64,000 nucleotides of DNA from contig JBEKVN010000002.1 in NCBI GenBank assembly GCA_049513915.1, positions 242 through 64,241 of the forward strand, in the 5' to 3' direction. The stretch is from Candidatus Aminicenantales bacterium. Lineage in GTDB: Bacteria; Acidobacteriota; Aminicenantia; Aminicenantales; Saccharicenantaceae. Both the position numbers and the translations under genes were made by a program. Shown piece by piece: positions 1,768 to 43,733 of the stretch (position 1 is its first letter; each line of letters begins with the position of its first letter). The notes under the pieces are model-generated. The model was given only the letters and a program-made list of their open reading frames with translations. It was not told the origin of the DNA and did not search any database.

Positions 1768-2064
1768 TTACATCTTGGCCGAGGCCGACGTCTGGTCGCC
1801 GGCCTCTTCTTCCTCGGACTCGACCTCGATGCCCAGGAGCTTGGCCGTTCCCTCGTAGACCATCTTCAGGGATTTCTTGGATTCCTGAAGCTCGGCCAGC
1901 CGCCTCCGGACCTTCTGGAGCTCCTTCTCGACTTCGTCGTCGAGGTTGTCGAGCTGCCGTCTGACCTCGTCCATCGTCCTCTTATAGAGTTCCTCTTGAT
2001 CCTTGCTCAGACCCATAGCTGACTCCTTTTGTTGATATACACTTTTCTTAGTCATGGGACTCAA
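1768..2064 (-). CDS. Small charged coiled-coil protein, hypothetical
   Basis: 98-aa ORF rich in E/K/L heptad-like segments (ELQKVRRRLAELQESKKSLK). Its start overlaps the stop of the upstream REC-TonB gene (ATGA), suggesting co-transcription. Confidence 0.4.
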   Translation of the reverse strand: MSPMTKKSVYQQKESAMGLSKDQEELYKRTMDEVRRQLDNLDDEVEKELQKVRRRLAELQESKKSLKMVYEGTAKLLGIEVESEEEEAGDQTSASAKM

Positions 2065-4253
2065 TTCTGCCTGGACCGGTTCGCCTTGAATATGACGACG
2101 ACAGGCTTCCAGACTTTAACGTTCACGCCGTCCTTTTTGGCCGGCTGGAACTTCCACTTCCTGACCGCGTCCGCGGCGGCTTTCTCGAGGCCCATGTCGT
2201 CCTTGAGCCCTTTGAGGATTCCGGTATTGATGACGCTCCCTGTTTCGTCGATCAGAGCGTTAACTGTGACCGAGCCTTCCTTGCCGAAGCGGCTGGCCTG
2301 GGCCGGATACAACGGATCGACGGACTTTTGGACCTTGGGCTGTTCATCGGCCGCGGCGAGGTCGACGAGATCCCCGGGATTGGCCCTTGCGGCCGCGGCC
2401 GGCTGGCCCGCGGCGTCGTCGCCGGTTCCGGTCGAGCCCTGGGGCGGTGCAGCCTCCGTCCTGACGGGCGGCTGGCCCTGCACCTGGCCGGCCAGTGATT
2501 CGGCGGACTTTGCGTCGCCGGTTTTGGTTTCGGGCGCTTTGGCATCGGCCTGTTTTGCGTCCACGGGCTTCGCGCCGGGTTTGTCGCCGGCGGCCCCGGG
2601 GATTGCCAGGCGGGAAATATCCAAGCTCCGAGACGGAACGATGGCGTCTTCAGCCGTAGGCAGGGGGTCGGCCGGATGATTCTGGACGGCCTGCGCGCCG
2701 GTCTTGGCTTTGGGGTTCACGGCCTTGAGCTTTTCTTCGGAGAGAGAAGGCAGCGACGCGTCCGGGGTGTTGTCGGAAGCGGCCGACGGGATTACCCGCG
2801 CCGGATTCTTCGGCATATTGCCGGCCGGGTTGCTGACGGGTTTGGGCCTGAGAATGAAGTAGCCCACCACGGCCACGATGACGAGCCCGGCGCCGACGGC
2901 GATGAACGGCGCGGGAGATTTTTTCTTTTCAACCTCGTAGATGTCCTTGAACATCCGGGCCTCGGCCGCCGTGCGCGATTCGTGGGCCAGCGGAGATTCT
3001 TTCGGGGCGGCCTCTTCCTCCGGCACATTCGGCTCGGGCTTCGGTTGCGCTTTTGGCTTGGGCGGTGCGGGGGCCGGCTGGACGGGCTGGGACATGGCCT
3101 TCGGACGGGACTGAGGCTGGGCCTGCGGGGACTTCGGCTTTTCAGCGACGGCCGCGGGCAGGGGGGGTGGAGTGGCCGCTTTCGGCTTTTCCTCCGGCGC
3201 GGCCGGCGGGACCGACGTCCCGAACGGCCTGGGTTTTTGATGAGCGGGGGCCGGCGCCGGGGCAACCGCTTTCGGCTTGTCCGGCGGCGGCTGGGGAGCC
3301 GGGACAGGATGCGGCACGGCTCTGGCCGTCTTCTTCTTTTCGGATTCGAGCCCGAAATCGGACAGCGTGGTCTTCAGGAGCTTATCGATGTCCTCCGCCT
3401 GCTGGTCTTTCTCCGTATGATCGTGCGGCCTCTCGTCGAGTCCGTTCGACACGCTATGGCCGGGCCTCCCGCCTTTCAGCGGTTCGGGCCGGCGGGAGTC
3501 GTCTTTTGTGGGTGCGATGTTGAGCAGGCTTTCGAGCTGGAGATCGTCGCCCAGGACGAACTTGCCGTCCTGCCCGCGTTTGACCTTGGGGATCATGGTC
3601 GACGCGGGCCTGATATCATGGCCAGGCTCCGGCCGGCGATACTCTTCCTTGGCCGGCCTGACGTTGAGGACGCTTTCGAGGCTCAGGCCCTCTTCCATGG
3701 CCGGCCTGTGGCCCGGAGCGGGTCTCGTCCGGGGCGAGTCTTCTCGCGCGGGCCTGACCTCGGGCTGAGGTTCGACGCGGCGCGGCTCTTCCTTGAGGGG
3801 CTTGACCACGGGCACCGGCCCGGGGCCTTCAACCGGTTCCCCGTTTCCCGGCTTGACCTCGGGACCGGGCTTGATGTCGGGCACCGTCAGGACCGCGTGG
3901 ATCGACGCGACGAACTTGAGCATGTCGAGGGGTTTTTCGAAATACTCGGACGCCCCGTACGTCCGGAGGGCCTCCGTCCTGTAGACGCGGTCTTTATAAA
4001 CGCCGGTCATGATGAACACGGGCACCTTCCGGACCGGGTCCTTGGTGATCCGGTCACAGAGCTCGAACCCATGGATCTTGGACAGCATGGCCTCCATGAG
4101 CACGAGGTCCGGCTTTTCGCTCTGGAATTTCTCCCAACCGGCCTGGCCGTCGCCCGCCACCGTCACGTCGAACCCCTCCTGGATCAGGGTCTTGCGCAGG
4201 GCGGCCAGGGAGGCCTGGTCATAATCGATGACAAGAATCTTCTTCATGCCCAT
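2061..4253 (-). CDS. Response-regulator receiver domain fused to TonB C-terminal domain (REC – Pro-rich linker – TM – Pro/Ala-rich spacer – TonB-C)
   Basis: N-terminus MGMKKILVIDYDQASLAALRKTLIQEGFDVTVAGDGQAGWEKFQSEKPDLVLMEAML... is a CheY-like REC domain. A very long P/E/K/A-rich low-complexity region follows, then one TM helix (FIAVGAGLVIVAVVGYFIL). The C-terminus ...GSVTVNALIDETGSVINTGILKGLKDDMGLEKAAADAVRKWKFQPAKKDGVNVKVWKPVVVIF matches the TonB C-terminal fold signature. Confidence 0.7.
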   Translation of the reverse strand: MGMKKILVIDYDQASLAALRKTLIQEGFDVTVAGDGQAGWEKFQSEKPDLVLMEAMLSKIHGFELCDRITKDPVRKVPVFIMTGVYKDRVYRTEALRTYGASEYFEKPLDMLKFVASIHAVLTVPDIKPGPEVKPGNGEPVEGPGPVPVVKPLKEEPRRVEPQPEVRPAREDSPRTRPAPGHRPAMEEGLSLESVLNVRPAKEEYRRPEPGHDIRPASTMIPKVKRGQDGKFVLGDDLQLESLLNIAPTKDDSRRPEPLKGGRPGHSVSNGLDERPHDHTEKDQQAEDIDKLLKTTLSDFGLESEKKKTARAVPHPVPAPQPPPDKPKAVAPAPAPAHQKPRPFGTSVPPAAPEEKPKAATPPPLPAAVAEKPKSPQAQPQSRPKAMSQPVQPAPAPPKPKAQPKPEPNVPEEEAAPKESPLAHESRTAAEARMFKDIYEVEKKKSPAPFIAVGAGLVIVAVVGYFILRPKPVSNPAGNMPKNPARVIPSAASDNTPDASLPSLSEEKLKAVNPKAKTGAQAVQNHPADPLPTAEDAIVPSRSLDISRLAIPGAAGDKPGAKPVDAKQADAKAPETKTGDAKSAESLAGQVQGQPPVRTEAAPPQGSTGTGDDAAGQPAAAARANPGDLVDLAAADEQPKVQKSVDPLYPAQASRFGKEGSVTVNALIDETGSVINTGILKGLKDDMGLEKAAADAVRKWKFQPAKKDGVNVKVWKPVVVIFKANRSRQN

Positions 4254-4506
4254 TTCTCGGGTCTCTCAGGCTCCAATTGTTCCTTTCGCTACCTATTTTT
4301 CATCACCCCCAGGACCGGTCAATCACCCCTTGGGGTGATTTCGTGGAGGATATTCCCCCCCGGGGTGCGAGGAGGGCTCATCATCCGCTTTTCGTGGCTT
4401 GATCGGTCCCCTTCTTTTTGTATAAAATGGGTTCCGATCCCGTTCGCTGGATTCTACGGACGCCAGTCTGTGGAGCTTCAGCCGACGTGAAGGGAGGGCA
4501 TGACAC

Positions 4507-5434: not shown

Positions 5435-6157
5435 ATGATGAAACGTTTGTGCGCAATCATCTCTATTTTCCTAGCCCTGGCCGCGGGTGGCATCCTGGCG
5501 CAGGAGAAGGCCGCGGCCCAGGAGACCTCGAGTTCCGTGCCCGAGCTCGAAGCCTTTCATGAAATCATCTATCCGATCTGGCACACGGCATACCCCGAGA
5601 AGGACATCGCCGCCCTGAAGGGCTATGTCCCCCGGATCAACGAGCTGGCGGCGAAGATCTACGCGGCCAAGCTTCCGGGTATCCTCCGGGAAAAGGAAGC
5701 CGCGTGGACGGCGGGTGTGGACAAACTCAAGCAGGCCGTCGACGCCTATAACACGGCGGCCAAGGGAGCCGATGGCCAGGCCCTGCTCAATGCCGCCGAG
5801 GCTCTCCACATGAGGTACGAGACGCTCGTGAGGGCCATCCGGCCGGTCCTCCCCGAAATGGACGCCTTCCATAAGGAACTGTACGTGGTTTATCACCGGT
5901 ACCTGCCGGACAAAAAATGGGACGACGTCCGGAAGGCCGCCCCCGCGATGAAGGCCCTGGCCGACGCCGTGGCCAAGGTCCAGCTCCCGAAGCGGCTCGA
6001 GGCCAAGACCGGGATGTTCAAGACTGCCGCGGCGAGTCTCGTCGAGGCGACCGCCGCGCTCGAAGGCCTCGCCAAGAGCGGCGACGCCGCCGCGCTGGAG
6101 CAAGCCGTCGTCAAGGTCCACGCGAAATACCAGGCCCTGGAAAAGGTCTTCGAATAA
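5435..6157 (+). CDS. Secreted hypothetical protein with an internal ~95-aa tandem duplication
   Basis: Signal peptide MMKRLCAIISIFLALAAGGILAQ. Two homologous halves (FHEIIYPIWHTAYPEKDIAALKGYVPRINELAAKI... / FHKELYVVYHRYLPDKKWDDVRKAAPAMKALADAV...). Strong RBS GGGAGG. Confidence 0.55.
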   Translation: MMKRLCAIISIFLALAAGGILAQEKAAAQETSSSVPELEAFHEIIYPIWHTAYPEKDIAALKGYVPRINELAAKIYAAKLPGILREKEAAWTAGVDKLKQAVDAYNTAAKGADGQALLNAAEALHMRYETLVRAIRPVLPEMDAFHKELYVVYHRYLPDKKWDDVRKAAPAMKALADAVAKVQLPKRLEAKTGMFKTAAASLVEATAALEGLAKSGDAAALEQAVVKVHAKYQALEKVFE

Positions 6158-6176: not shown

Positions 6177-8003
6177 CTACGCTTCCTTAGGGCAGGGGGT
6201 GTGCTCTTCGATGAGCGCCTGAAGGATCTCGAGTTCGTCGGAGTCGAACCAGATCTTTGAGCACGACAGACACTTATCCACCGGCACGAAATACTGATAA
6301 TTGTAGGGTCGGGGCGCCATCCTGTAGCCGCAGGCCGGGCAGGGGACCTCTCCGGTCACCGAGGCGTTGATCTTCCGCCTCTTCGCGGGATCGGCGAGGA
6401 CGTTCTCTTCGAACGCCCGGGCCTTGGCGGCGAGGTCGCCGGAGAATGCGACCTCACGGCGGGCGATGATCCTCTCGACTCCGGCCGCGTCCACGAGTTT
6501 CCCCGTGCATCGCCGGCAAATCCGGATGGCGACGCCTTCATAATACGCTTCGGCGAGGGGAAGCCGGCAACGCGGGCAGAGATTCTGGCGCCCGGGGACA
6601 AGCGGCTTTTTCCTGGCCAGATTCCTGAGGGCGACCCGCACCTGGGGGAATTCCCGGGCTCCGGCTTCGATTCCTTCCTGCGTGTTCTTGACGAGCATCG
6701 ACGCCGAAAACCTCGGGAGGCAGACGAGCTCGCCCATGGTCAAGGGGCCTTCCCATCTTCCGGCCTGTCCGGTTGCGAGGAGCCAGATGCGGGCTTCGTC
6801 GGGGGGGAGGAATGAGGCCTCGGGGGAGGGGGGCCCGCCCGCCGCCCCTGCGCTTGCCGCGGCGGGCGCAGGCCCGTCCGGAGATATCAATTCCCCGCAC
6901 CCCGGGAAGAGCTCGAGTTGGCCTTTCTTGATTTCCTCAAAGGAATGGATGACCCCGCGGGCCTGCTCCCGGAGGTTCACGCTTTGGCGAACCTCGCCGA
7001 TGACCTCGGCCGGGGTTCTGTGCGCCATGGCCGCCAGGATCCCCAGCCGTTTCATGAACGGCGGGTGGGAGTTAAAAATCCTCCCGGCCAGCGTATCCGG
7101 CACATCCTTCGCGCCGGGAGGGACGATGAAGAGGGGTGTATACGTGAGGGAAAAATCCCCGATGAACGAGTTCTTCACCTGGGCCTTGTAGATGGCCCGG
7201 GCCAGGGACTCCGGCGCCCGGCAGAGCTCGACGGCGGCCGCGTCGGCCAGGAGCTCCCGTTCGCGGCTCACCAGCATGCTCAGGAGATGCATGGCGAGCG
7301 CGGAGAGGTCGAGCGCGAAATAAAAGAGGAAGGGCGCCCTTCTCGCTTGGACGCGCCCGCTCCGCTCGGCCCCGGGTCCCGCGAAATCCTCCCGCTCCGG
7401 TTCCAGGGCTTCCTGAAGCCTTTCGAAGACGTTGGCCAGGGAACAGACAAGGGTCAGGTAGAAGGCGTCGCCCCGGGCGATGTGCGCGAGCTCATGGGCG
7501 GCCACGGCTTCGAGCTCGTCGCGCGTCCCGTCGGCCAGGAGGCCCTCCGTGACGGCGACGGCGGGGGTGCCGTCGCCTTCGATCAGGGCCAGGGAATTGA
7601 TGGCGAACGAGGGCAGCACATACCCGTTGACGCGGGGGAGGCCGGCGGCGATGCGGATCCCGTCGAGCGTGTCGAGGAATTGCTTATGATAACGGTCGGC
7701 GGGATCGGGGATCGCAGCCTGAAGCCGCTTGAGGATGTATCGGGGTCCGTTGCGCTTGGCGTCCAGAAAATGAAGGACGGCCACGACCGTCGCGGCGGCC
7801 AGGTCGAAAATCATAAAGCGGACCCAGAAATGCGGCGTCCCGAACGTCCCCCGCGCTAAAAGGAGGCCGAAGCTCAGGACGAGGGCCAGGGCGATGGCTC
7901 CGAGCGCGACGACGTAGAAGGCGATGACGGCGAAAAAGAGGGAGAGGCTCTTGGCCCGCTGGCTTTTCTGGACTTCGTAAAAATCCTTGGGGACCGCGGC
8001 CAT
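6177..8003 (-). CDS. M48-family zinc metallopeptidase with N-terminal TM helices and two C-terminal zinc-ribbon (zf-TFIIB-like) modules
   Basis: HExxH motif in AAHELAHIARGD. N-terminal hydrophobic helices. C-terminal CPRCRLPL...CRRCTGKLVD and CPACGYRMAP...CLSCSKIWFDSDELEIL (the CPxCG...CxxCxxxWxDxxEL pattern). Confidence 0.7.
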   Translation of the reverse strand: MAAVPKDFYEVQKSQRAKSLSLFFAVIAFYVVALGAIALALVLSFGLLLARGTFGTPHFWVRFMIFDLAAATVVAVLHFLDAKRNGPRYILKRLQAAIPDPADRYHKQFLDTLDGIRIAAGLPRVNGYVLPSFAINSLALIEGDGTPAVAVTEGLLADGTRDELEAVAAHELAHIARGDAFYLTLVCSLANVFERLQEALEPEREDFAGPGAERSGRVQARRAPFLFYFALDLSALAMHLLSMLVSRERELLADAAAVELCRAPESLARAIYKAQVKNSFIGDFSLTYTPLFIVPPGAKDVPDTLAGRIFNSHPPFMKRLGILAAMAHRTPAEVIGEVRQSVNLREQARGVIHSFEEIKKGQLELFPGCGELISPDGPAPAAASAGAAGGPPSPEASFLPPDEARIWLLATGQAGRWEGPLTMGELVCLPRFSASMLVKNTQEGIEAGAREFPQVRVALRNLARKKPLVPGRQNLCPRCRLPLAEAYYEGVAIRICRRCTGKLVDAAGVERIIARREVAFSGDLAAKARAFEENVLADPAKRRKINASVTGEVPCPACGYRMAPRPYNYQYFVPVDKCLSCSKIWFDSDELEILQALIEEHTPCPKEA

Positions 8004-8064: not shown

Positions 8065-8210
8065 CTCGAAAACGAGGACCTAAGAAATCCCCTATAGTTT
8101 TATTGGGGTCGGACCAAACCAACTCATTGATAGACAGCTCGTTACCCCAAAAGGCCTGGCGCTTTTTGGCCTTAAGTCCGTGTTTTCAGGGCTCAAAACG
8201 AGGACTTAAG
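8065..8210. repeat. Composite palindromic repeat locus A: half-hairpin + TTGGGGTCGGACCAA box (inverted orientation) + full hairpin CTTAAGTCCGTGTTTTCAGGGCTCAAAACGAGGACTTAAG
   Basis: Box at 8104–8118. Imperfect 40-nt hairpin at 8171–8210. Half copy CTCGAAAACGAGGACCTAAG at 8065–8084. Intergenic between the M48 peptidase and tricorn genes. Confidence 0.8.
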
Positions 8211-8302
8211 AGAGACCTGTTGTCGGGATTCGTCCTGTGGTATAGTTCCGTACTTATCATGGGTGTCCCGAAAAAACACATGATTCCGGGGAGGAAAAAA
8301 AT

Positions 8303-11300
8303 GAGAAAAGCGTCTTGGGTCGTCCTGTGTCTGATCCTCGTTCTTTGCTGGTCCGGTCCCGTTTGGGCCGTGAACACGAAGGACACGAAATTCCTGACCC
8401 AGCCCGCGGTCAGCGCCAACATGGTCGCTTTTGTCTACGCCAACGATCTCTGGACGGCCGACCTCGACGGTAAGAACGTCCGGCGCCTGACCTCGGACGT
8501 CGGCGTCGAATCGAGCCCGGCCTTTTCGCCGGATGGGTCCCTGATCGCCTTCAGCGCCCAATACGACGGGAACACCGACGTCTATGTCGTCCCCGCGGCC
8601 GGAGGCATCCCGAAGCGCTTGACGTGGCATCCGACGGTCGACATCGTCCAGGGCTTCACGCCCGACGGCCAGTCGGTCATCTTCGTCACGCTACGGGATC
8701 AGCCCGTTCGTTCCTATGCCAGCCTCTACGCGGTCCCCGTTTCGGGAGGCATCCCGACCAAGCTCACGATCCCTTATGCCTACCGGGCGGTTTACTCGCC
8801 CGATGGGAAATACATCGCCTATAACCCGTTCAGTGACGCCTTTCTCCAATGGAAGAATTATCGCGGCGGCACGCATTCGCGCGTCTGGATCTTCAACACG
8901 GCCGACCTGTCCATCGACAAGGTCCCCCAGCCGCCCGGCCGGTCGAACGACGCCGGGCCGATGTGGGTGGAATCGAAAGTCTACTTCCGGTCCGACCGCA
9001 ACGGCGAGTTCAACCTCTTTTCCTATGACCGGGCGACCAAGGACATCAAACAGTTGACGTTCTATAAGGATTACCCGGTCCTGAACGCCTCGGCCGGCGC
9101 GGGGCGGATTATCTTCGAGCAGGCTGGCGCCCTCCATCTCTACGACGTCGCCAAAAATCAGGAACGCCGGCTCTCGATCGGCGTGGCCACCGACCTCCCC
9201 GAGCTCCGTGAGCGGTACGCCAAAGGCTGGCAGTGGATCCGAGGCGGGGCGGTCTCGCCGACGGGCGCCCGCGCCGTGTTTGAATTCCGCGGCGACATCG
9301 TCACAGTCCCGGGCGAGAAAGGCGACCCCCGGGATATCACAAACTCGCCCGGCGTCAACGAGCGCTCTCCGGTCTGGTCGCCCGACGGGGCCTCCATCGC
9401 CTATTTCTCCGACGAATCCGGTGAGTACGAGCTCCACGTCCGGAATCAGGAGGGCAAAGGCGACGTGAAGAAATTCAAGCTCAACGGGGCCGGCTACTAC
9501 GGCTCGCCCTCCTTTTCGCCCGACAGCGGGAAGATCGCCTATGCCGATAACAGCCTGACCCTCTTTTGGATCGACCTCAAGACCGGTGTTCATAAAAAGA
9601 TCGGGGCGGAATACATGTATCAGCCGGGAGGACAGGCCGACATGTCCGCCTCCTGGAGCCCGGATTCCAAGTGGGTCAGCTACACCCTGAGCACGCCGAC
9701 CTTCTTCCGCCGGGTCTTCGTCTATTCGCTCGAGCAGGATAAGTCGTTCCCCGTCACCGACGGGCTGAGCGACGTATCAGAGCCCGTCTTCGACCCGAGC
9801 GGGAAGTACCTTTATTTCTTTGCTTCGACCGACGCCGGACCCTCCCGGCAATGGTTCGACCAATCAAACGCCGACATCCGGGAGACGAGCGCCCTCTATC
9901 TGGCCGTCCTTCGGAAAGACGTAACCAACCCGCTGGCCAAGGAGAGCGATGAAGAGAAGCCCGCCCCGGCCAAGGATGAGAAGGCCCCCGGCGCGAAGGA
10001 CGCCGGCAAGCCGTCCGATAAGGGAACGGCCGTGGTCAAGCCCGGGGAAAAAACCGAACCCGCGGCCAAGCCCGCCGCGGCGGCCGATGCGTTCCGCATC
10101 GACTTCGACGGCCTTGACCACAGAATCGTGACCGTTCCCATCCCGGCCGGGATCTACGGCGGCCTCCAGATCGGAGATACAGGAAAAATCTACTACCTGG
10201 CCGTCGACCTGCCCGCGAACCTGGAGTCGCTGGCCAATCTCGGCAGTGTCGCAGGGGCCGTCCATGTGTATGATCTGGCGACACGCAAGGACGAGGTCCT
10301 GGCTCCGGGCGTCAATGGATTCGTCCTGACCGCGGACAAGAAAAAGATGCTCGTGTTTTCCCAGAATTCGGTCGCCATCGTGCCTTCGGCCGGCAAGCCT
10401 CAGCCCGGCCAGGGACGCCTCAATGTGGAAGCCATCGAGGTGCGCGTCAACCCCGAGGCGGAATGGTGGCAGATGTTCGATGAGGCCTGGAGGGTCAATC
10501 GGGATTATTTCTATGATCCCGGCATGCACGGCGCCAACTGGACGGCCGTAAAAGCGAAATACGCGGGCTTTCTCCCCGACGTCCCGTGCCGGGCCGACCT
10601 CAATCGGCTCATCCAGTGGATGTGCTCGGAGCTCGCGGTCGGCCACCATCGCGTGATGGGGGGCGATTTCCCGAACCAACCCAAGCGCGTGCCGGGCGGC
10701 CTCCTGGGCGCCGATTATGCCGTCGAAAACGGCCGCTACCGGATCGTCAAGGTCTACGGCGGCCTGAACTGGAATCCCGAGCTCCGGTCGCCGCTGACCG
10801 AGCCGGGCGTCGATGTGAAAGCCGGCGAATACCTGCTCGCCGTGAATGGGCGGGACCTCCGGGCGCCCGAGAGCGTCTATGCCCGGTTCGAGAACACGGC
10901 CGGCAAGATCGTCGAGATCATGGTCGGCCCCAACGCGGACGGAAGCGGGTCCCGGACAGTCCAGGTCGTTCCGGTCGCCGACGAAGGAGGCCTCAGGAAC
11001 CGCGACTGGGTCGAGGGCAACCTCAAAAAAGTCCAAGCGGCGACGGGCGGCCGCGTGGCCTACGTCTACGTGCCCAATACGACCACCCAAGGCTATGTTT
11101 ATTTCAAGCGGTATTTCTTCCCCCAGGCCGATAAGGACGCGATCATCGTCGACGAGCGCTTCAACGGCGGGGGATCCGTGGCCGATTACTATATCGACTG
11201 GCTGCAGAAGCCGGTCATCGCCTACTGGGCCATGCGCTACGGGGCCGACCTCAAGACGCCGAGCGCCTCGATCCAGGGCCCCAAGGTGATGCTGATCAAC

Positions 11301-11651
11301 GAAAGCGCGGGATCCGGCGGCGACCTCCTGCCCTGGATGTGGCGTAAATTCGGTCTCGGCAAGCTCGTCGGGACGCGGACCTGGGGCGGCCTGGTCGGCA
11401 TCCTCGGATTTCCCGTCCTGATGGACGGTGGGATGGTCACGGCGCCCAACCTGGCCATCTGGACCGAGGACGGCTTCGTGGTCGAGAACGAGGGCGTCCC
11501 CCCGGACATCGAGGTCGAGCAGACGCCGAAGGACGTCATCGCCGGGCACGACCCGCAGCTCGAGCGGGCGATTCAGGTCGTCATGGACGAGCTGGCCAAG
11601 AACCCGCCCAAAAAGCCGAAGAGGCCCGCGTTTCCGATACGAGTGAGATAA
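8303..11651 (+). CDS. Tricorn-protease-like periplasmic protease (TolB-like beta-propellers + S41-type C-terminal peptidase domain)
   Basis: Signal peptide MRKASWVVLCLILVLCWSGPVWA after a GGAGG RBS. Repeated ...SPDG..IAF/...DIY motifs of TolB-type propellers. C-terminal FNGGGSVADYYIDWLQ...LINESAGSGGDLLPWMWRKFGLGKLVGTRTWGG resembles the tricorn/S41 catalytic domain. The track ORF starts at 8103 but the upstream part is repeat-derived, so the 8303 ATG is preferred. Confidence 0.7.
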
Positions 11652-39097: not shown

Positions 39098-41383
39098 ATG
39101 AGCACGCGCACGGTTGAATCGAAGGCCCCCGCCGGCCAATTGCCGGAGAGCCGGGAACGATTCTCTTCCATCGTTGAAAATTCGCAAGCGGCGATTTTCA
39201 TCATGGACCAGGCCTTCCGGATCCTCTACGTGAACGGCGAGGCCGCCCGAATCTCGGGATTTTCCCGTGAGGAGATGGCCGGCCGGGATTTTCTGATATT
39301 CGTCGACGCCAAGAGCCTGCCGCTCGTGAGGTACTATCAGAACTGCCGGCAGGGCGGAGAGTATGCCCCTTCAAGTTATGAATTCGTTTTCGTCCGAAGA
39401 GACGGGGAGAGAAGGTTCGTAGAATGCAGCGCCTCCCTGATCAAGAATTCGAAGGGAATGTCCGAAACCGTGCTGCAGCTCCTGGACATCACGGACCGGC
39501 TGCAGGCGGGGGAAGACTTGAAGAGCTCGCATGAGATCTTCAAGATCATTTTCGAATACGCGCCCGATAGCATCTTTCTGATCGACCGGAAAGGGATATT
39601 CATCAACGGCAACCGAATGGTGGAAGAATTGACCGGCTATTCGAGGAAGGAAATCATCGGCAATAGCTTCCTGACGTTGGGGCTTCTGCCCCGCGGTCAA
39701 ATTGTCAAAGCGACCGGACTTCTGGCCAAAAGCATCCTGGGCAAGGCCACCGGCCCGGACGGATTGGTTCTGAGAAGAAAAGACGGGTCCGAGTTTCCCG
39801 TTGAAATCAGCACCTATCCCGTCAAAGTCAACGGCCAAACCATCGCTCTAGGGATCGCCCGGGATATAACGGAGCGTAAGCGATCCGAGGAAAACCTGGC
39901 CAAACACCAGGAAAACCTCTGGAACCTCATCAAGGAGCGAACCAAGGAGCTCGAGGAGGCCAAGCAGGCCGCAGATGCGGCCAACCGGGCCAAGAGCGCC
40001 TTTCTCGCCAATATGTCCCACGAGATCCGGACGCCGATGAACGCCATCCTCGGATTCACCCAGCTCATGCAGCGCGACGAAACGCTGGCCGCCCACCAGA
40101 GGCGGCACCTGGACGTCATCAACAGGAGCGGCGAGCACCTGCTGGCCTTGATTACCGACATCCTGGAAATGTCGAAGATCGAGGCCGGCCGGATCACCTT
40201 GAACCCGACGACATTCAGCCTCCAGTCCCTGCTCACCGACTTGGAGATGATATTCCGGCCGCCTGCCGACGCGAAGAATCTCCATTTCAAGGTGGAATGC
40301 CCGGACGACATGCCTCGCTATGTGGAGGGGGACGAAGGCAAACTGCGCCAGATCCTCATCAACCTGCTGGGGAACGCGGTGAAATTCACCCAGGCGGGCG
40401 GCATCGTCTTGAGGGCGCGGCTGGACCCCGAGGGTCCGGACAAGCTGAGGCTCAGCGCGGAAGTCGAGGACTCGGGTCCGGGCATTCCGGAGAAGGAGCA
40501 GGAAAGCCTGTTCACGCCTTTTCAACAAACCCAGAACGGGCGCCGGATGGGGACGGGTACGGGCCTGGGGCTGGCCATCTGCAGGGAATTTGTCCATCTG
40601 ATGGGAGGGGACATCACGGTCAGCAGCCAGCCCGGGAAGGGGAGCCTGTTCAAGTTCCATGTCCTACTGGGAGAGGGGGAGATTGCCGCGGCCGAAAAAA
40701 AATCGGAATCCTACAGGATCAAGAGCCTGCAGCCCGGACAACCAGCCTGTCGAATCATGATCGTCGATGACGAAGACATCAACGGCGCCCTCGTCGCTCA
40801 GATGCTCGGCAGCATCGGGTTCGATACGGGCCGGGCCGCCAACGGCAAGGAAGCCGTTGAGCGGTTCACGGCCTGGCATCCCCACTTGATCCTCATGGAC
40901 ATGCGTTTGCCGGTGATGGATGGGTGTGAAGCCATCCGCCGCATCAGGGCCGGCCCGGGGGGGGCGGACGTCAAGATCATCAGCGTGACCGCCAGCGCCT
41001 TCGAAGAGAACCGCAGGGAAGCGCTCGAAGCCGGCGCCGACGACTTTCTGGCCAAGCCTTTCCGCGAGGCCGTGCTTTTCGAGAAGGTCAAAAAGCTGTT
41101 GGGCATCGAGTATGTGCTCTTGGAGGACACGACGCCCGAGAAAAACCCGCCCCGCGCGGCCGCCACAAGCGCGGTAACGGCGGAAGTCCTGGCCTCTCTA
41201 CCCAGGGATTTCATCCGGAAGATGCGCGAAGCTGTCATCCAGGCGGACTATGACCGGATGATGGGGTTGATCGGCAGCGTGGAAGGCCACAGCGCCCCCG
41301 TCGCCCAGGTGCTCCGGGGCCTCGTCGAACGTTTCGAATACAAGGAACTTTTGGATCTATTGCAAAAGCGAAGGAGCAACTGA
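39098..41383 (+). CDS. Hybrid sensor histidine kinase / response regulator (PAS–PAS–HisKA–HATPase–REC)
   Basis: Two PAS-like segments. H-box SHEIRTPMNAILGF. N/G boxes LINLLGNAVKFT and GTGLGLAIC. Receiver MIVDDEDING...ILMDMRLPVMDG. Confidence 0.85.
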   Translation: MSTRTVESKAPAGQLPESRERFSSIVENSQAAIFIMDQAFRILYVNGEAARISGFSREEMAGRDFLIFVDAKSLPLVRYYQNCRQGGEYAPSSYEFVFVRRDGERRFVECSASLIKNSKGMSETVLQLLDITDRLQAGEDLKSSHEIFKIIFEYAPDSIFLIDRKGIFINGNRMVEELTGYSRKEIIGNSFLTLGLLPRGQIVKATGLLAKSILGKATGPDGLVLRRKDGSEFPVEISTYPVKVNGQTIALGIARDITERKRSEENLAKHQENLWNLIKERTKELEEAKQAADAANRAKSAFLANMSHEIRTPMNAILGFTQLMQRDETLAAHQRRHLDVINRSGEHLLALITDILEMSKIEAGRITLNPTTFSLQSLLTDLEMIFRPPADAKNLHFKVECPDDMPRYVEGDEGKLRQILINLLGNAVKFTQAGGIVLRARLDPEGPDKLRLSAEVEDSGPGIPEKEQESLFTPFQQTQNGRRMGTGTGLGLAICREFVHLMGGDITVSSQPGKGSLFKFHVLLGEGEIAAAEKKSESYRIKSLQPGQPACRIMIVDDEDINGALVAQMLGSIGFDTGRAANGKEAVERFTAWHPHLILMDMRLPVMDGCEAIRRIRAGPGGADVKIISVTASAFEENRREALEAGADDFLAKPFREAVLFEKVKKLLGIEYVLLEDTTPEKNPPRAAATSAVTAEVLASLPRDFIRKMREAVIQADYDRMMGLIGSVEGHSAPVAQVLRGLVERFEYKELLDLLQKRRSN

Positions 41384-42480
41384 TGAAAATAACCCTCACT
41401 TATCCGGGCAAGCCGGATATTCTCGTCGTGGACGATACGGCCTCGAACCTCCAGCTTCTGACGAACATGCTGAAGGAACGGGGGTACAAAACGCGGCCGG
41501 TGCCCAGCGGGATGCAGGCCCTTCAGGCCGCCTTGAGCGACCCCCCGGACCTGATCCTGCTCGACGTCAACATGCCGCAGATGAATGGGTTCGAGGTGTG
41601 CCAAAGCCTGAAAGCCGACGAAAAGTTGAAGGACATCCCGGTCATCTTCATCAGCGCTCTCAACGAGGTGCTGGACAAGGTCAAGGCCTTCTCGGTCGGC
41701 GGTGTGGACTACATCACCAAGCCGTTCCAGTTCGACGAAGTCCAGGCCCGGGTGGATACGCACTTGAAGCTCCGGCACCTTCAGAAGGAACTTGAGAAGC
41801 ACAACCAGCAACTGGGAAAACTCGTTCAGGCCCAAGTGAAGAAGATCTCGGACACGCAAATGGCGTTGATATTCGCCCTGGCCAAGCTGGCGGAATCGCG
41901 GGATGACGATTCGGGGATGCACCTCGAACGTGTCCAGGCCTTCTGCAAAACGCTGGCCGAAGGGCTGGCCCGGCGCCCGCATTTCGGCGGGCAGGTCGAC
42001 GGGAAATTCATCGAGAACATTTTTCACGCGAGCCCGCTCCACGACATCGGCAAGGTCGCCATCCCGGATCGCATCATCCTCAAACCCGGCAAACTAACCC
42101 CTGAGGAATTCGAGGTGATGAAAACCCACGCCAAGATGGGGGCCGAAAAGTTGGAGGCCGTCCAGCGAAGATTCCCCGGAAACGCACTGCTCGATATGGG
42201 AATCGCCATCGCCAGGTTCCATCATGAAAAGTGGAGCGGGGAAGGTTATCCCCAGGGCTTGGCGGGCGAGGCCATCCCGCTTTGCGCGCGTATCATGGCG
42301 GTCGTGGACGTTTATGAGACCTTGCGGGCGAAGCGCTGCTACAAGCCCGCCTTCACTCATGAAGAGAGCGCGGAGATCATCATCAATTCGAGCGGGACGC
42401 ACTTCGATCCCGAGATCGTCAAGGTCTTTGTCGAACTCAAGGAAGAATTCAGAGCAATACGCGACGGGATGAAGGATTAG
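41383..42480 (+). CDS. Response regulator with HD-GYP phosphodiesterase output domain
   Basis: REC (ILVVDDTASNLQLL...LILLDVNMPQMNG) followed by HD-GYP motifs LHDIGKVAIPD and HHEKWSGEGYPQGL. Start overlaps the stop of the hybrid kinase. Confidence 0.85.
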   Translation: MKITLTYPGKPDILVVDDTASNLQLLTNMLKERGYKTRPVPSGMQALQAALSDPPDLILLDVNMPQMNGFEVCQSLKADEKLKDIPVIFISALNEVLDKVKAFSVGGVDYITKPFQFDEVQARVDTHLKLRHLQKELEKHNQQLGKLVQAQVKKISDTQMALIFALAKLAESRDDDSGMHLERVQAFCKTLAEGLARRPHFGGQVDGKFIENIFHASPLHDIGKVAIPDRIILKPGKLTPEEFEVMKTHAKMGAEKLEAVQRRFPGNALLDMGIAIARFHHEKWSGEGYPQGLAGEAIPLCARIMAVVDVYETLRAKRCYKPAFTHEESAEIIINSSGTHFDPEIVKVFVELKEEFRAIRDGMKD

Positions 42481-43052: not shown

Positions 43053-43733
43053 ATGGCCCGTCTCGCCCGTTCCATCCTCGTTGGCTACCCGCACCAGGTT
43101 ACCCAGCGCGGGAACTACGACCAGAATATCTTCCAGGAGGACGCGGACTACCGGCGCTACCTGGAATGGCTTTGCGAGTCCTCGACCCGGTACTCAACGG
43201 CCATTTGGGCTTATTGCCTGATGCCGAACCATGTCCATTACGTCTGCGTTCCCAGTGCCGCGGACGGGCTGTCCCGCACGTTCAATACCCTTCACATGAA
43301 GTACGCCCAACACGTCCACAGGAAAAAAGGCGTGACGGGCCACCTCTGGCGGGGGAGGTTCCTCTCGTGCATCCTCGACAATCCGAGCGTTTTCGAGGAG
43401 GTCAGGTTTATCGAAAACAATCCCATCAGGATGGGCCTCGTCGAGCGGCCCGAGGATTATCCCTGGTCAAGCGCCAGGAGCCACATCCTAGGCACACCTG
43501 ATCCAGCCCTCGCGGAAGGCTGCTTCCTGAAGGGTGAGGTCCTGGACTGGCGCGCCTATTTGGCGTCGGCACAGAATGAGGGTGTCGTTCGGCGGACCTG
43601 GGAGAGGCTGAAGACGGGGCGGCCTGCCGGGGATGAGGGATTCGTGCGCGGCCTCGAGAAGCTGACCGGCCGCCGGCTCGCGGCGTTGCCGAGGGGAAGG
43701 CCGAGGAAAAACACGGTCGCAGTGATAAAATGA
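43053..43733 (+). mobile_element. IS200/IS605-family Y1 (HUH) transposase of the REP-associated tyrosine transposase (RAYT) type
   Basis: HUH motif in YCLMPNHVHYVCVP. C-terminal IENNPIRMGLVERPEDYPWSSA contains the catalytic Tyr context Y-x-WSS seen in TnpA_REP/RAYT proteins. N-terminal GYPHQVTQRGN. Flanked by its own REP array. Confidence 0.75.

Follow-up and report, generated by a model that had tools for sequence, protein, structure and literature searches.

A TonB-type protein family of Aminicenantes with a cytoplasmic Glu-type pseudo-receiver and a co-inherited coiled-coil partner

Introduction

TonB proteins are the textbook case of a membrane protein with essentially no cytoplasmic part. 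Here we describe a gene that follows another plan, in a stretch of 64,000 nucleotides (the window, in what follows) from contig JBEKVN010000002.1 of a Candidatus Aminicenantales bacterium (GenBank assembly GCA_049513915.1). Its 730-aa product places a receiver-like domain and a long disordered linker ahead of a single transmembrane (TM) helix, which is followed by a periplasmic spacer and a TonB C-terminal domain (TonB_C), and a small gene for a coiled-coil protein lies directly downstream.

Several described systems resemble this protein in part. TonB proteins "in general lack a cytoplasmic domain" (PMC8262864), and TonB and TolA make their contact to ExbB and TolQ through a conserved, essential motif, SHLS (Ser-x3-His-x6-Leu-x3-Ser; PMC12215075). 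The GltJ protein of Myxococcus xanthus has a 377-aa cytosolic region, a disordered linker with a short binding motif, one TM helix, a flexible periplasmic region and a TonB-C domain, and its partner AglZ combines a receiver with a Pro-rich segment and a coiled coil (PMC11135422). Bacterial pseudo-receivers, finally, are matched computationally by receiver models but do not have the key catalytic residues; about 80% of them are non-acidic at the DD2 position, Glu at the phospho-acceptor (D) position is known from plant pseudo-response regulators (PRRs) and Ascomycota Rim15p, and the working mode of the bacterial proteins is an acknowledged open question (PMC12632262).

Full-text searches, including searches for TonB in Aminicenantes and for TonB_C together with response regulators, returned no description of a receiver–TonB fusion, and the word "TonB" is absent from the pseudo-receiver review (PMC12632262). 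TonB_C, pseudo-receivers and coiled coils are already known as parts, and automatic pipelines tag both domains of the protein. What appears to be new, in the literature searched, is their combination throughout a clade: a Glu-type pseudo-receiver, a disordered linker, a TM helix of non-SHLS type and TonB_C in one protein, accompanied by a coiled-coil partner and an operator-like element.

Results

One uninterrupted gene, conserved across a clade

The gene was delimited from the list of open reading frames (ORFs) and annotated with Pfam and NCBIfam.

2061..4253, minus strand: gene for a 730-aa protein made of pseudo-receiver, disordered linker, TM helix, spacer and TonB_C

An earlier note on this DNA, made from its letters, had proposed a receiver (REC) domain joined through a Pro-rich linker and one TM helix to TonB_C. 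That layout is borne out by HMMER annotation and is conserved in homologs. Both domains score above their Pfam cutoffs, Response_reg (PF00072) at residues 6-118 with E 2e-19 and 70.1 bits against a cutoff of 30.2, and TonB_C (PF03544) at residues 647-722 with E 1.6e-16 and 60.9 bits against 24.6; the NCBIfam model TIGR01352 (tonB_Cterm) adds 50.6 bits against 27.1. The product is a 100% match to a record named "TonB family protein [Candidatus Aminicenantales bacterium]". An AlphaFold2 model of the 730-aa protein, with a family alignment of 116 sequences as input, gave a predicted local distance difference test (pLDDT) score of about 90 for the receiver and above 90 for TonB_C (residues 628-725), with two further helices at residues 282-299 and 449-467 and values below 50 for the remainder. 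Foldseek with the whole model against PDB returned matches to the receiver only.

A database search for the same receiver–TonB architecture recovered a large family (274 homologs in the first search), whose best 120 members almost all carry both Pfam domains and whose source names say only "TonB family protein". When 1.84 billion representatives were searched exhaustively and the best 150 inspected, about 120 of these proteins showed the layout of receiver, one TM helix and TonB_C. At 50% identity the family falls into more than 100 clusters, and 140 representatives at this level have E<=1e-30. All 48 GTDB species genomes with the gene are metagenome-assembled genomes (MAGs), and they bear Aminicenantes, Aminicenantales, Aminicenantia, Saccharicenans or Acidobacteriota labels or placeholder names; the divergent clusters are named Aminicenantes, Saccharicenans or Acidobacteriota, with one uninformative "[bacterium]". 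NCBI taxonomy places Aminicenantales within Candidatus Aminicenantota.

A response regulator gene and a TonB gene joined by a frameshift or a mis-join could yield such an ORF, and a few MAGs do carry the gene in two ORFs, with the break inside the Pro-rich linker (L020, L037, L047, L043). More than 230 homologs from various studies, assemblers and independent assemblies nevertheless show the same uninterrupted layout, and this excludes a frameshift fusion. GC content at third codon positions (GC3), uniform at 0.80, also argues against an artefact, as do the pieces that it would leave behind: the receiver part by itself would have no output domain, and a separate TonB part would carry some 320 disordered residues ahead of its TM helix. 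We give the artefact practically no weight, and most likely the split ORFs are indel errors in a GC-rich, repetitive linker rather than cases of gene fission.

An aspartate-less pseudo-receiver

Three features define the N-terminal domain.

3885..4253, minus strand: pseudo-receiver of REC fold, residues 1-123 (PF00072 at 70 bits, AlphaFold2, Foldseek, alignments)
4092-4094, minus strand: codon of Glu54, in the phospho-acceptor column (phmmer alignments)
4221-4223, minus strand: codon of Tyr11, in the metal-binding DD2 column (phmmer alignments)

The domain is modelled with the (beta-alpha)5 fold of CheY, and Foldseek gave target TM-scores of about 0.9 to Spo0F, DivK and MicA. The earlier note had seen a conserved Asp context in DLVLMEAML; the Asp there is D49, at the start of beta3, and the acceptor column holds Glu54. 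The phmmer alignments with B. subtilis PhoP, ArlR and RpaA pair "PDLVLMEAML" with "PDLIVLDVML", Glu54 falling on the acceptor Asp, and "VIDYDQ" with "VVDDEE", which puts Tyr11 at DD2 and keeps DD1 as D10.

These features extend to the relatives. When the query was aligned by MAFFT with 116 full-length homologs, E54 appeared in 117/117 sequences; T83, K107, P108 and H61 were likewise invariant, and D10 and D12 occurred in 116. Y104 occupies K-3, and the switch residues Thr83, Tyr104 and Lys107 are conserved in the family. Among the REC-bearing proteins of the top 150 representatives (50% identity), the acceptor column holds Glu in 129, Ser in 3, Ala in 1 and Asp in 5, and all five Asp-bearing matches are soluble multi-REC proteins without TonB_C. 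The approximately 120 divergent REC-TM-TonB_C proteins share the signature D-[YF]-[DE] ... E ... [TS] ... [YF]..K, with a few Ser or Ala at the acceptor, and the DD2 column is Tyr or Phe in nearly all family members.

With Glu at the acceptor and Tyr or Phe at DD2, the receiver domain is, judged by its residues, an aspartate-less pseudo-receiver within the definition of PMC12632262. Neither phosphoryl acceptance nor Mg2+ binding would be expected of it, and thus no cognate histidine kinase is expected; this non-phospho chemistry is a part of our interpretation that we count as established. Within the Aminicenantes family, conservation exceeds 90% at every position of residues 83-108, which run from the beta4-alpha4 loop through beta5, and this suggests that the usual alpha4-beta5-alpha5 effector face is the probable docking site.

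The result bears directly on the proposal of the earlier note that this is a genuine response regulator, in which a histidine kinase phosphorylates an Asp and so toggles energy transduction by TonB. The strong Response_reg match, the retention of Thr83, Tyr104 and Lys107 and the presence of a hybrid histidine kinase 35 kb off in the window all speak for such a switch. However, the sequence contradicts it, since across the REC-TM-TonB_C proteins the acceptor Asp has become Glu and DD2 has become Tyr or Phe. No histidine kinase is syntenic with the gene in the window or in the related loci whose gene tables we read, and the distant one, the only histidine kinase of the window, has a REC-HD regulator of its own. 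Phosphorylation control is therefore the part of the earlier proposal that we regard as very improbable.

The kinase in question is a hybrid rich in PAS domains (HisKA-HATPase-REC). The stop codon of its gene overlaps the start codon of the next, which encodes the REC-HD (HD_5) regulator, and the pair occupies 39098-42480 on the plus strand of the window. We rejected regulation of the TonB gene by this pair at 39-42 kb, as the pair is self-contained and is not syntenic in homologs.

A coiled-coil partner gene

1768..2016, minus strand: partner gene, encoding an 82-aa coiled-coil protein (AlphaFold2, heptad pattern, synteny)

The small coiled-coil ORF that had been noticed downstream is present; the translational coupling ascribed to it is not borne out. 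Its probable start, ATG 2016, lies 44 nt past the TGA of the TonB gene (2061-2063) and is served by a Shine-Dalgarno sequence of its own (AAGGAG, 2023-2028), which indicates that the two genes are operonic and closely spaced and do not overlap. No convincing terminator lies between them, the number of candidate sites being that expected from shuffled sequence.

AlphaFold2 models the partner as one 57-residue helix (residues 5-61, pLDDT above 95) with an acidic tail, and its heptads are hydrophobic at 6/7 a and 7/9 d positions. A partner of 81-82 aa lies directly downstream in every Aminicenantes locus of sufficient length, and the gene is followed by one in almost every lineage. Identity between partners is 75-99% across loci in which the TonB proteins share only about 40%. 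Partner homologs also follow the divergent genes of L050 (948 aa), L054, L055 (Saccharicenans), L057 and L058, the neighbours of which otherwise differ. A profile search returned about 1,570 clusters, and no characterised name was attached to any of them; Pfam and NCBIfam gave only sub-threshold coiled-coil noise on the partner. Source labels such as "gas vesicle protein" or "replicative DNA helicase" are spurious, and a precomputed PF28159 tag on some homologs is not interpretable, there being no such match in our Pfam scan. The partner protein is the best-conserved, co-inherited part of the module, a point that the earlier note had overlooked.

An operator-like element at the promoter

The region upstream of the TonB gene holds a further conserved part.

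4295..4340, minus strand: promoter and putative operator of the TonB gene (promoter-like match, conservation)
4321-4340, minus strand: inverted repeat AATCACCCC-AA-GGGGTGATT, adjoining the -35-like hexamer
4317-4322, minus strand: -35-like hexamer TTGACC
4295-4300, minus strand: -10-like hexamer AAAAAT; the element also holds a third GGGGGTGA copy

The consensus of the element, AATCACC-N4-GGGGTGATTGACC-N6-GGGGGTGA-N2-AAAAAT, is kept in 34/38 distinct upstream regions. Its palindrome, AATCACC-N6-GGTGATT, occurs in one copy in nearly every related locus (two in L041) and solely upstream of the TonB-family gene, with no copy elsewhere in the window or in about 700 kb of related loci. It is also present in L055, L057 (2970-2989) and L059 (7893-7912), and the upstream neighbours in L057 and L059 differ. 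Rfam gave no matches in the window, so no riboswitch precedes its TonB gene. The palindrome thus looks like a dedicated, conserved, putative operator at the promoter, and it too had escaped the earlier note.

Linker, membrane helix and TonB_C

The remainder of the protein is made up of the following parts.

2916..3884, minus strand: cytoplasmic disordered linker rich in Pro, Glu, Lys and Ala, residues 124-446 (composition, pLDDT below 50)
3480-3542 and 3624-3686, minus strand: two copies of a 21-aa repeat, L.LES.LN..P.K[DE][DE].RRPEP, in the linker
3357..3410, minus strand: amphipathic linker helix, residues 282-299, core ..EDIDKLLKTTLSD (AlphaFold2, conservation)
2844..2915, minus strand: single TM helix, residues 447-470 (hydropathy, AlphaFold2 helix 449-467, column profile)
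2382..2843, minus strand: periplasmic disordered spacer rich in Ala, Pro, Lys and Asp, residues 471-624 (composition, pLDDT below 50)
2079..2381, minus strand: TonB C-terminal domain, residues 625-725 (PF03544, TIGR01352, phmmer, pLDDT above 90)
2304-2309, minus strand: YP of the P-x-Y-P-x-x-A motif

The linker (P 20%, A 11%, E 10%, K 10%) is poorly conserved and ranges in length from about 30 aa to about 330 aa or more across the family. Its two 21-aa repeats look lineage-specific, because the C-terminal halves of both fall in columns of the family alignment that are gapped in most homologs. The sole helical element and best-scoring part of the linker is helix 282-299 (pLDDT blocks of 67-81 in the AlphaFold2 model), in which D290 is invariant and conservation reaches at least 90% at I289, L293, K294, L297 and A298. 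A hidden Markov model of this helix matches about half of the divergent representatives, and motifs resembling it are readable in the L045, L050 and L051 proteins. In view of the kinase-bearing relatives, a degenerate kinase domain was considered for the linker and rejected: neither Pfam nor phmmer with the L050 kinase gave a Pkinase signal.

Only one segment, at about residues 447-470, is strongly hydrophobic on the Kyte-Doolittle scale (2.66). This TM helix contains many small residues (AVGAG..A..G), and a conserved L-R-P-K comes after it. A search for the Ser-x3-His of the SHLS motif recovered it in the positive control, E. coli TonB, but in none of 120 divergent and none of 116 close homologs, an absence that the earlier note had missed. 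Beyond the membrane, the spacer of about 155 aa (A 21%, P 13%) is long enough to span the periplasm; it measures about 110 aa in the short form of the protein. TonB_C has an invariant G-D-L (residues 627-629) ahead of the P-x-Y-P-x-x-A motif, where "DPLYPAQA" aligns with "QPQYPARA" of E. coli TonB, and phmmer matched it to Vibrio TonB2 (2k9k, 1e-9) and E. coli TonB (1xx3, 1u07 and 2gsk, 2e-5).

Variant architectures and genomic neighbourhoods

Several lineages encode longer proteins (866-1,166 aa), paralogues or orthologues, that combine pseudo-receiver, Pkinase domain, TM helix and TonB_C. Three were located in their loci.

L050, 367-3213: kinase variant
L054, 8001-10799: kinase variant, 932 aa
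L058, 8001-11501: kinase variant, 1,166 aa

P0285, P0322, P0358, P0363 and P0370 are further proteins of this kind, and some kinase variants have Ser or Ala instead of Glu at the acceptor. In a 602-aa relative (L051, 4804-6612), a Glu-type pseudo-receiver, a linker with a similar motif, acidic and amphipathic, and a single TM helix come before a PEGA domain that replaces TonB_C. The family also has a short form of 390 aa (L057), and a related true receiver, with Asp, belongs to a soluble TPR protein (L052). Taken together, the variant architectures indicate that it is the cytoplasmic module that stays constant.

As the earlier note had stated for the gene's immediate surroundings, no exbB or exbD is adjacent. 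The 64-kb window encodes no ExbB, ExbD or TolQR and no TonB-dependent receptor, and in the related loci whose gene tables were read, the 8-10 kb around the gene likewise lack exbB, exbD and tolQR. In sister lineages the surroundings include import genes. The family gene is followed by Peripla_BP_2/FecCD/ABC_tran import operons in L053 and L056, the former also with a TonB-dependent transporter, and on the P0329 contig by Peripla_BP_2/FecCD/ABC_tran genes, a Plug/beta-barrel receptor and Cob_adeno_trans (cob(I)alamin adenosyltransferase). The coiled-coil gene of L054 is separated from a Peripla_BP_2/FecCD/ABC_tran operon by a cobalamin riboswitch (RF00174, 75 bits, 11085-11212), and here riboswitch and operon adjoin a kinase-bearing family member. 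The short form in L057 adjoins an LptD-like outer-membrane gene.

An outer-membrane role, as the earlier note had suggested, is plausible because the protein has a canonical YP motif, homology to solved TonB C-terminal domains and, in sister lineages, neighbours in BtuFCD/BtuB-type clusters. Such a role could also be structural. Like GltJ and AglZ in Myxococcus, the protein might be a trans-envelope tether or scaffold that serves localisation, envelope organisation or surface motility instead of uptake, joining a cytoplasmic platform of pseudo-receiver and coiled coil to an outer-membrane or cell-wall complex. GltJ shares the overall plan, and AglZ has the receiver, Pro-rich and coiled-coil parts (PMC11135422); the pseudo-receiver of FrzS is among the better PDB sequence matches (E 6e-12); and the LptD-like neighbour of L057, the PEGA variant and the lack of transport genes near the gene in the window clade all fit a tether. 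The likeness to FrzS is, however, no stronger than that to ordinary receivers, and Pfam detects no ZnR or GYF domains. Agl/Glt, MglA/MglB and TolQR-like genes are absent from the window and from the related loci with gene tables that were read, and several lineages have the gene in Btu-type uptake clusters. We judge a tether improbable.

The main rival to the coupling role that we favour is outside-in signalling across the envelope. TonB_C would then sense ligand-loaded outer-membrane receptors, by their exposed TonB boxes, or some other envelope cue, and the TM helix would relay the signal to the pseudo-receiver, which would bind or release the coiled-coil protein or, in the variants, activate the fused Ser/Thr kinase; the outcome would be altered gene expression or enzyme activity, as with FecA-FecR. 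A Pkinase domain between pseudo-receiver and TM helix, as in the three located variants and the five further proteins, is a receptor-kinase layout, and the exchange of TonB_C for PEGA points to a periplasmic domain that can be swapped around a constant cytoplasmic module. A highly conserved small cytoplasmic partner and a co-travelling operator would fit an autoregulatory loop, the neighbouring import operons of B12/siderophore type would be logical regulatory targets, and the family-wide absence of SHLS and the lack of adjacent exbBD in the loci examined are in keeping with signalling as well. Yet the partner is a plain acidic coiled coil without a DNA-binding or sigma/anti-sigma signature, the conserved module encodes no transcription factor, and one TM helix behind a 320-aa disordered linker makes a poor conformational conduit in the window protein. 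Inward signalling by TonB_C domains is not known, and we count this against the idea too. On balance we think signalling of this kind unlikely, though a serious contender. Slightly less likely again is its fuller form, an unrecognised trans-envelope system in which TonB_C reads receptor occupancy or envelope state and passes it inward through a phosphorylation-independent switch or, in paralogous forms, a fused Ser/Thr kinase, as an alternative to FecR and extracytoplasmic function (ECF) sigma factors that works without ExbBD.

In the window clade, neighbouring genes encode an M48 peptidase, a C1 peptidase, LysE, URO-D and a secreted repeat protein of 240 aa; they are syntenic within Aminicenantes but not retained in divergent lineages. 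The 240-aa protein (window 5435-6157, plus strand) has a hydrophobic, signal-like N-terminus and two repeats of about 100 aa (FHEIIYPIWHTAYP... and FHKELYVVYHRYLP...); its likeness to cytochrome b562 is weak and sub-threshold, and throughout Aminicenantes its gene keeps synteny with the TonB gene. The M48 peptidase (6177-8003, minus strand) combines N-terminal TM segments with C-terminal TFIIB-type zinc ribbons, and most Aminicenantes loci retain its gene, at a position two to three genes upstream of the TonB gene. Beyond it lies a 1,182-aa Tricorn-like protease (8103-11651, plus strand) with PD40 repeats, Tricorn C1, PDZ and Peptidase_S41 domains, syntenic in relatives. From 43053 to 64000, GC3 falls from about 0.8 to 0.4-0.6; this part starts with an IS200-like Y1 transposase (43053-43733), carries a polysaccharide-biosynthesis cluster of epimerases/dehydratases, a flippase, glycosyltransferases and a sugar transferase, and is probably a horizontally acquired island.

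Discussion

We lean, tentatively and with a confidence a little short of even, towards the view that the gene encodes a lineage-specific TonB-type outer-membrane coupler of Aminicenantes and Acidobacteriota with a constitutive, phosphorylation-independent cytoplasmic interaction module. TonB_C would bind the TonB box of outer-membrane TonB-dependent transporters, whose substrates could be of corrinoid or siderophore type, as the BtuFCD/BtuB clusters of sister lineages suggest. On the cytoplasmic side, we infer that the pseudo-receiver serves as a permanently "on-like" protein-interaction module, which would work without a phospho-switch and without the participation of a histidine kinase. It is tethered to the membrane through a disordered, length-variable linker carrying one conserved amphipathic helix. 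The docking site is probably its invariant alpha4-beta5 face, where it would bind the coiled-coil partner, an ExbB/TolQ-type motor on its cytoplasmic side, or both, and linker helix 282-299 is a further candidate to dock on that face. Such docking could substitute for the missing SHLS contact, or it could regulate or localise the TonB protein.

A number of points weigh against this coupler. The Ser-x3-His part of SHLS is missing in all 236 members examined, and neither the window nor any of the related loci examined has exbB or exbD beside the gene. The window-clade neighbours are peptidases, LysE and URO-D, with no transport genes among them, and the kinase- and PEGA-bearing variants resemble signalling or anchoring proteins more than they do energy transducers. 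The interaction between pseudo-receiver and coiled coil, moreover, is one that we infer from co-inheritance and conservation only.

The family unites TonB_C with a pseudo-receiver and offers a sequence-defined system in which to approach the function of a membrane-tethered, Glu-type pseudo-receiver. It also raises the question of whether TonB_C can function without the canonical SHLS/ExbB contact, and it bears on corrinoid and siderophore uptake in uncultured Aminicenantes and Acidobacteriota, which are abundant in sediments and peat. For annotation, the practical message is that naming these proteins "response regulators" would wrongly suggest two-component control.

Comparison with known systems

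FecR-type anti-sigma factors are conceptually near to the signalling rival, in that a single-pass inner-membrane protein links an outer-membrane receptor to a cytoplasmic partner. Neither our protein nor its partner gives FecR, zf-HC2 or sigma-factor matches, and the periplasmic domain here is TonB_C.

With TonB itself, as represented by E. coli TonB and Vibrio TonB2, the protein shares a single pass through the inner membrane, a Pro-rich spacer in the periplasm and, at the C-terminus, TonB_C with its YP motif, and in sister lineages its genes lie within BtuFCD/BtuB-type uptake clusters. It differs in the 446 residues, including a folded domain, that precede the TM helix of the window protein, and the family differs in having no Ser-x3-His of SHLS, no adjacent exbBD in the loci examined, and an obligate small coiled-coil partner.

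The closest studied layout is that of M. xanthus GltJ, with AglZ, in the Agl-Glt gliding machinery. Here the cytosolic part is a receiver, whereas GltJ has ZnR and GYF domains. In Myxococcus, receiver and coiled coil are united in one separate soluble protein; in our family the receiver is on the TonB_C protein and the coiled coil is separate. The resemblance is one of layout, with homology limited to TonB_C.

Overall, the cytoplasmic domain finds its nearest counterparts among pseudo-receivers such as those of plant PRRs, fungal Rim15p, FrzS and AglZ, which likewise match the receiver model while the catalytic residues are missing. It shares Glu at the acceptor position with plant PRRs and Ascomycota Rim15p, and a non-acidic DD2 with most bacterial pseudo-receivers. 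Whereas none of those described is fused to a TM helix and TonB_C, the family of the window protein carries both and keeps the conserved T, the K and the aromatic residue at K-3.

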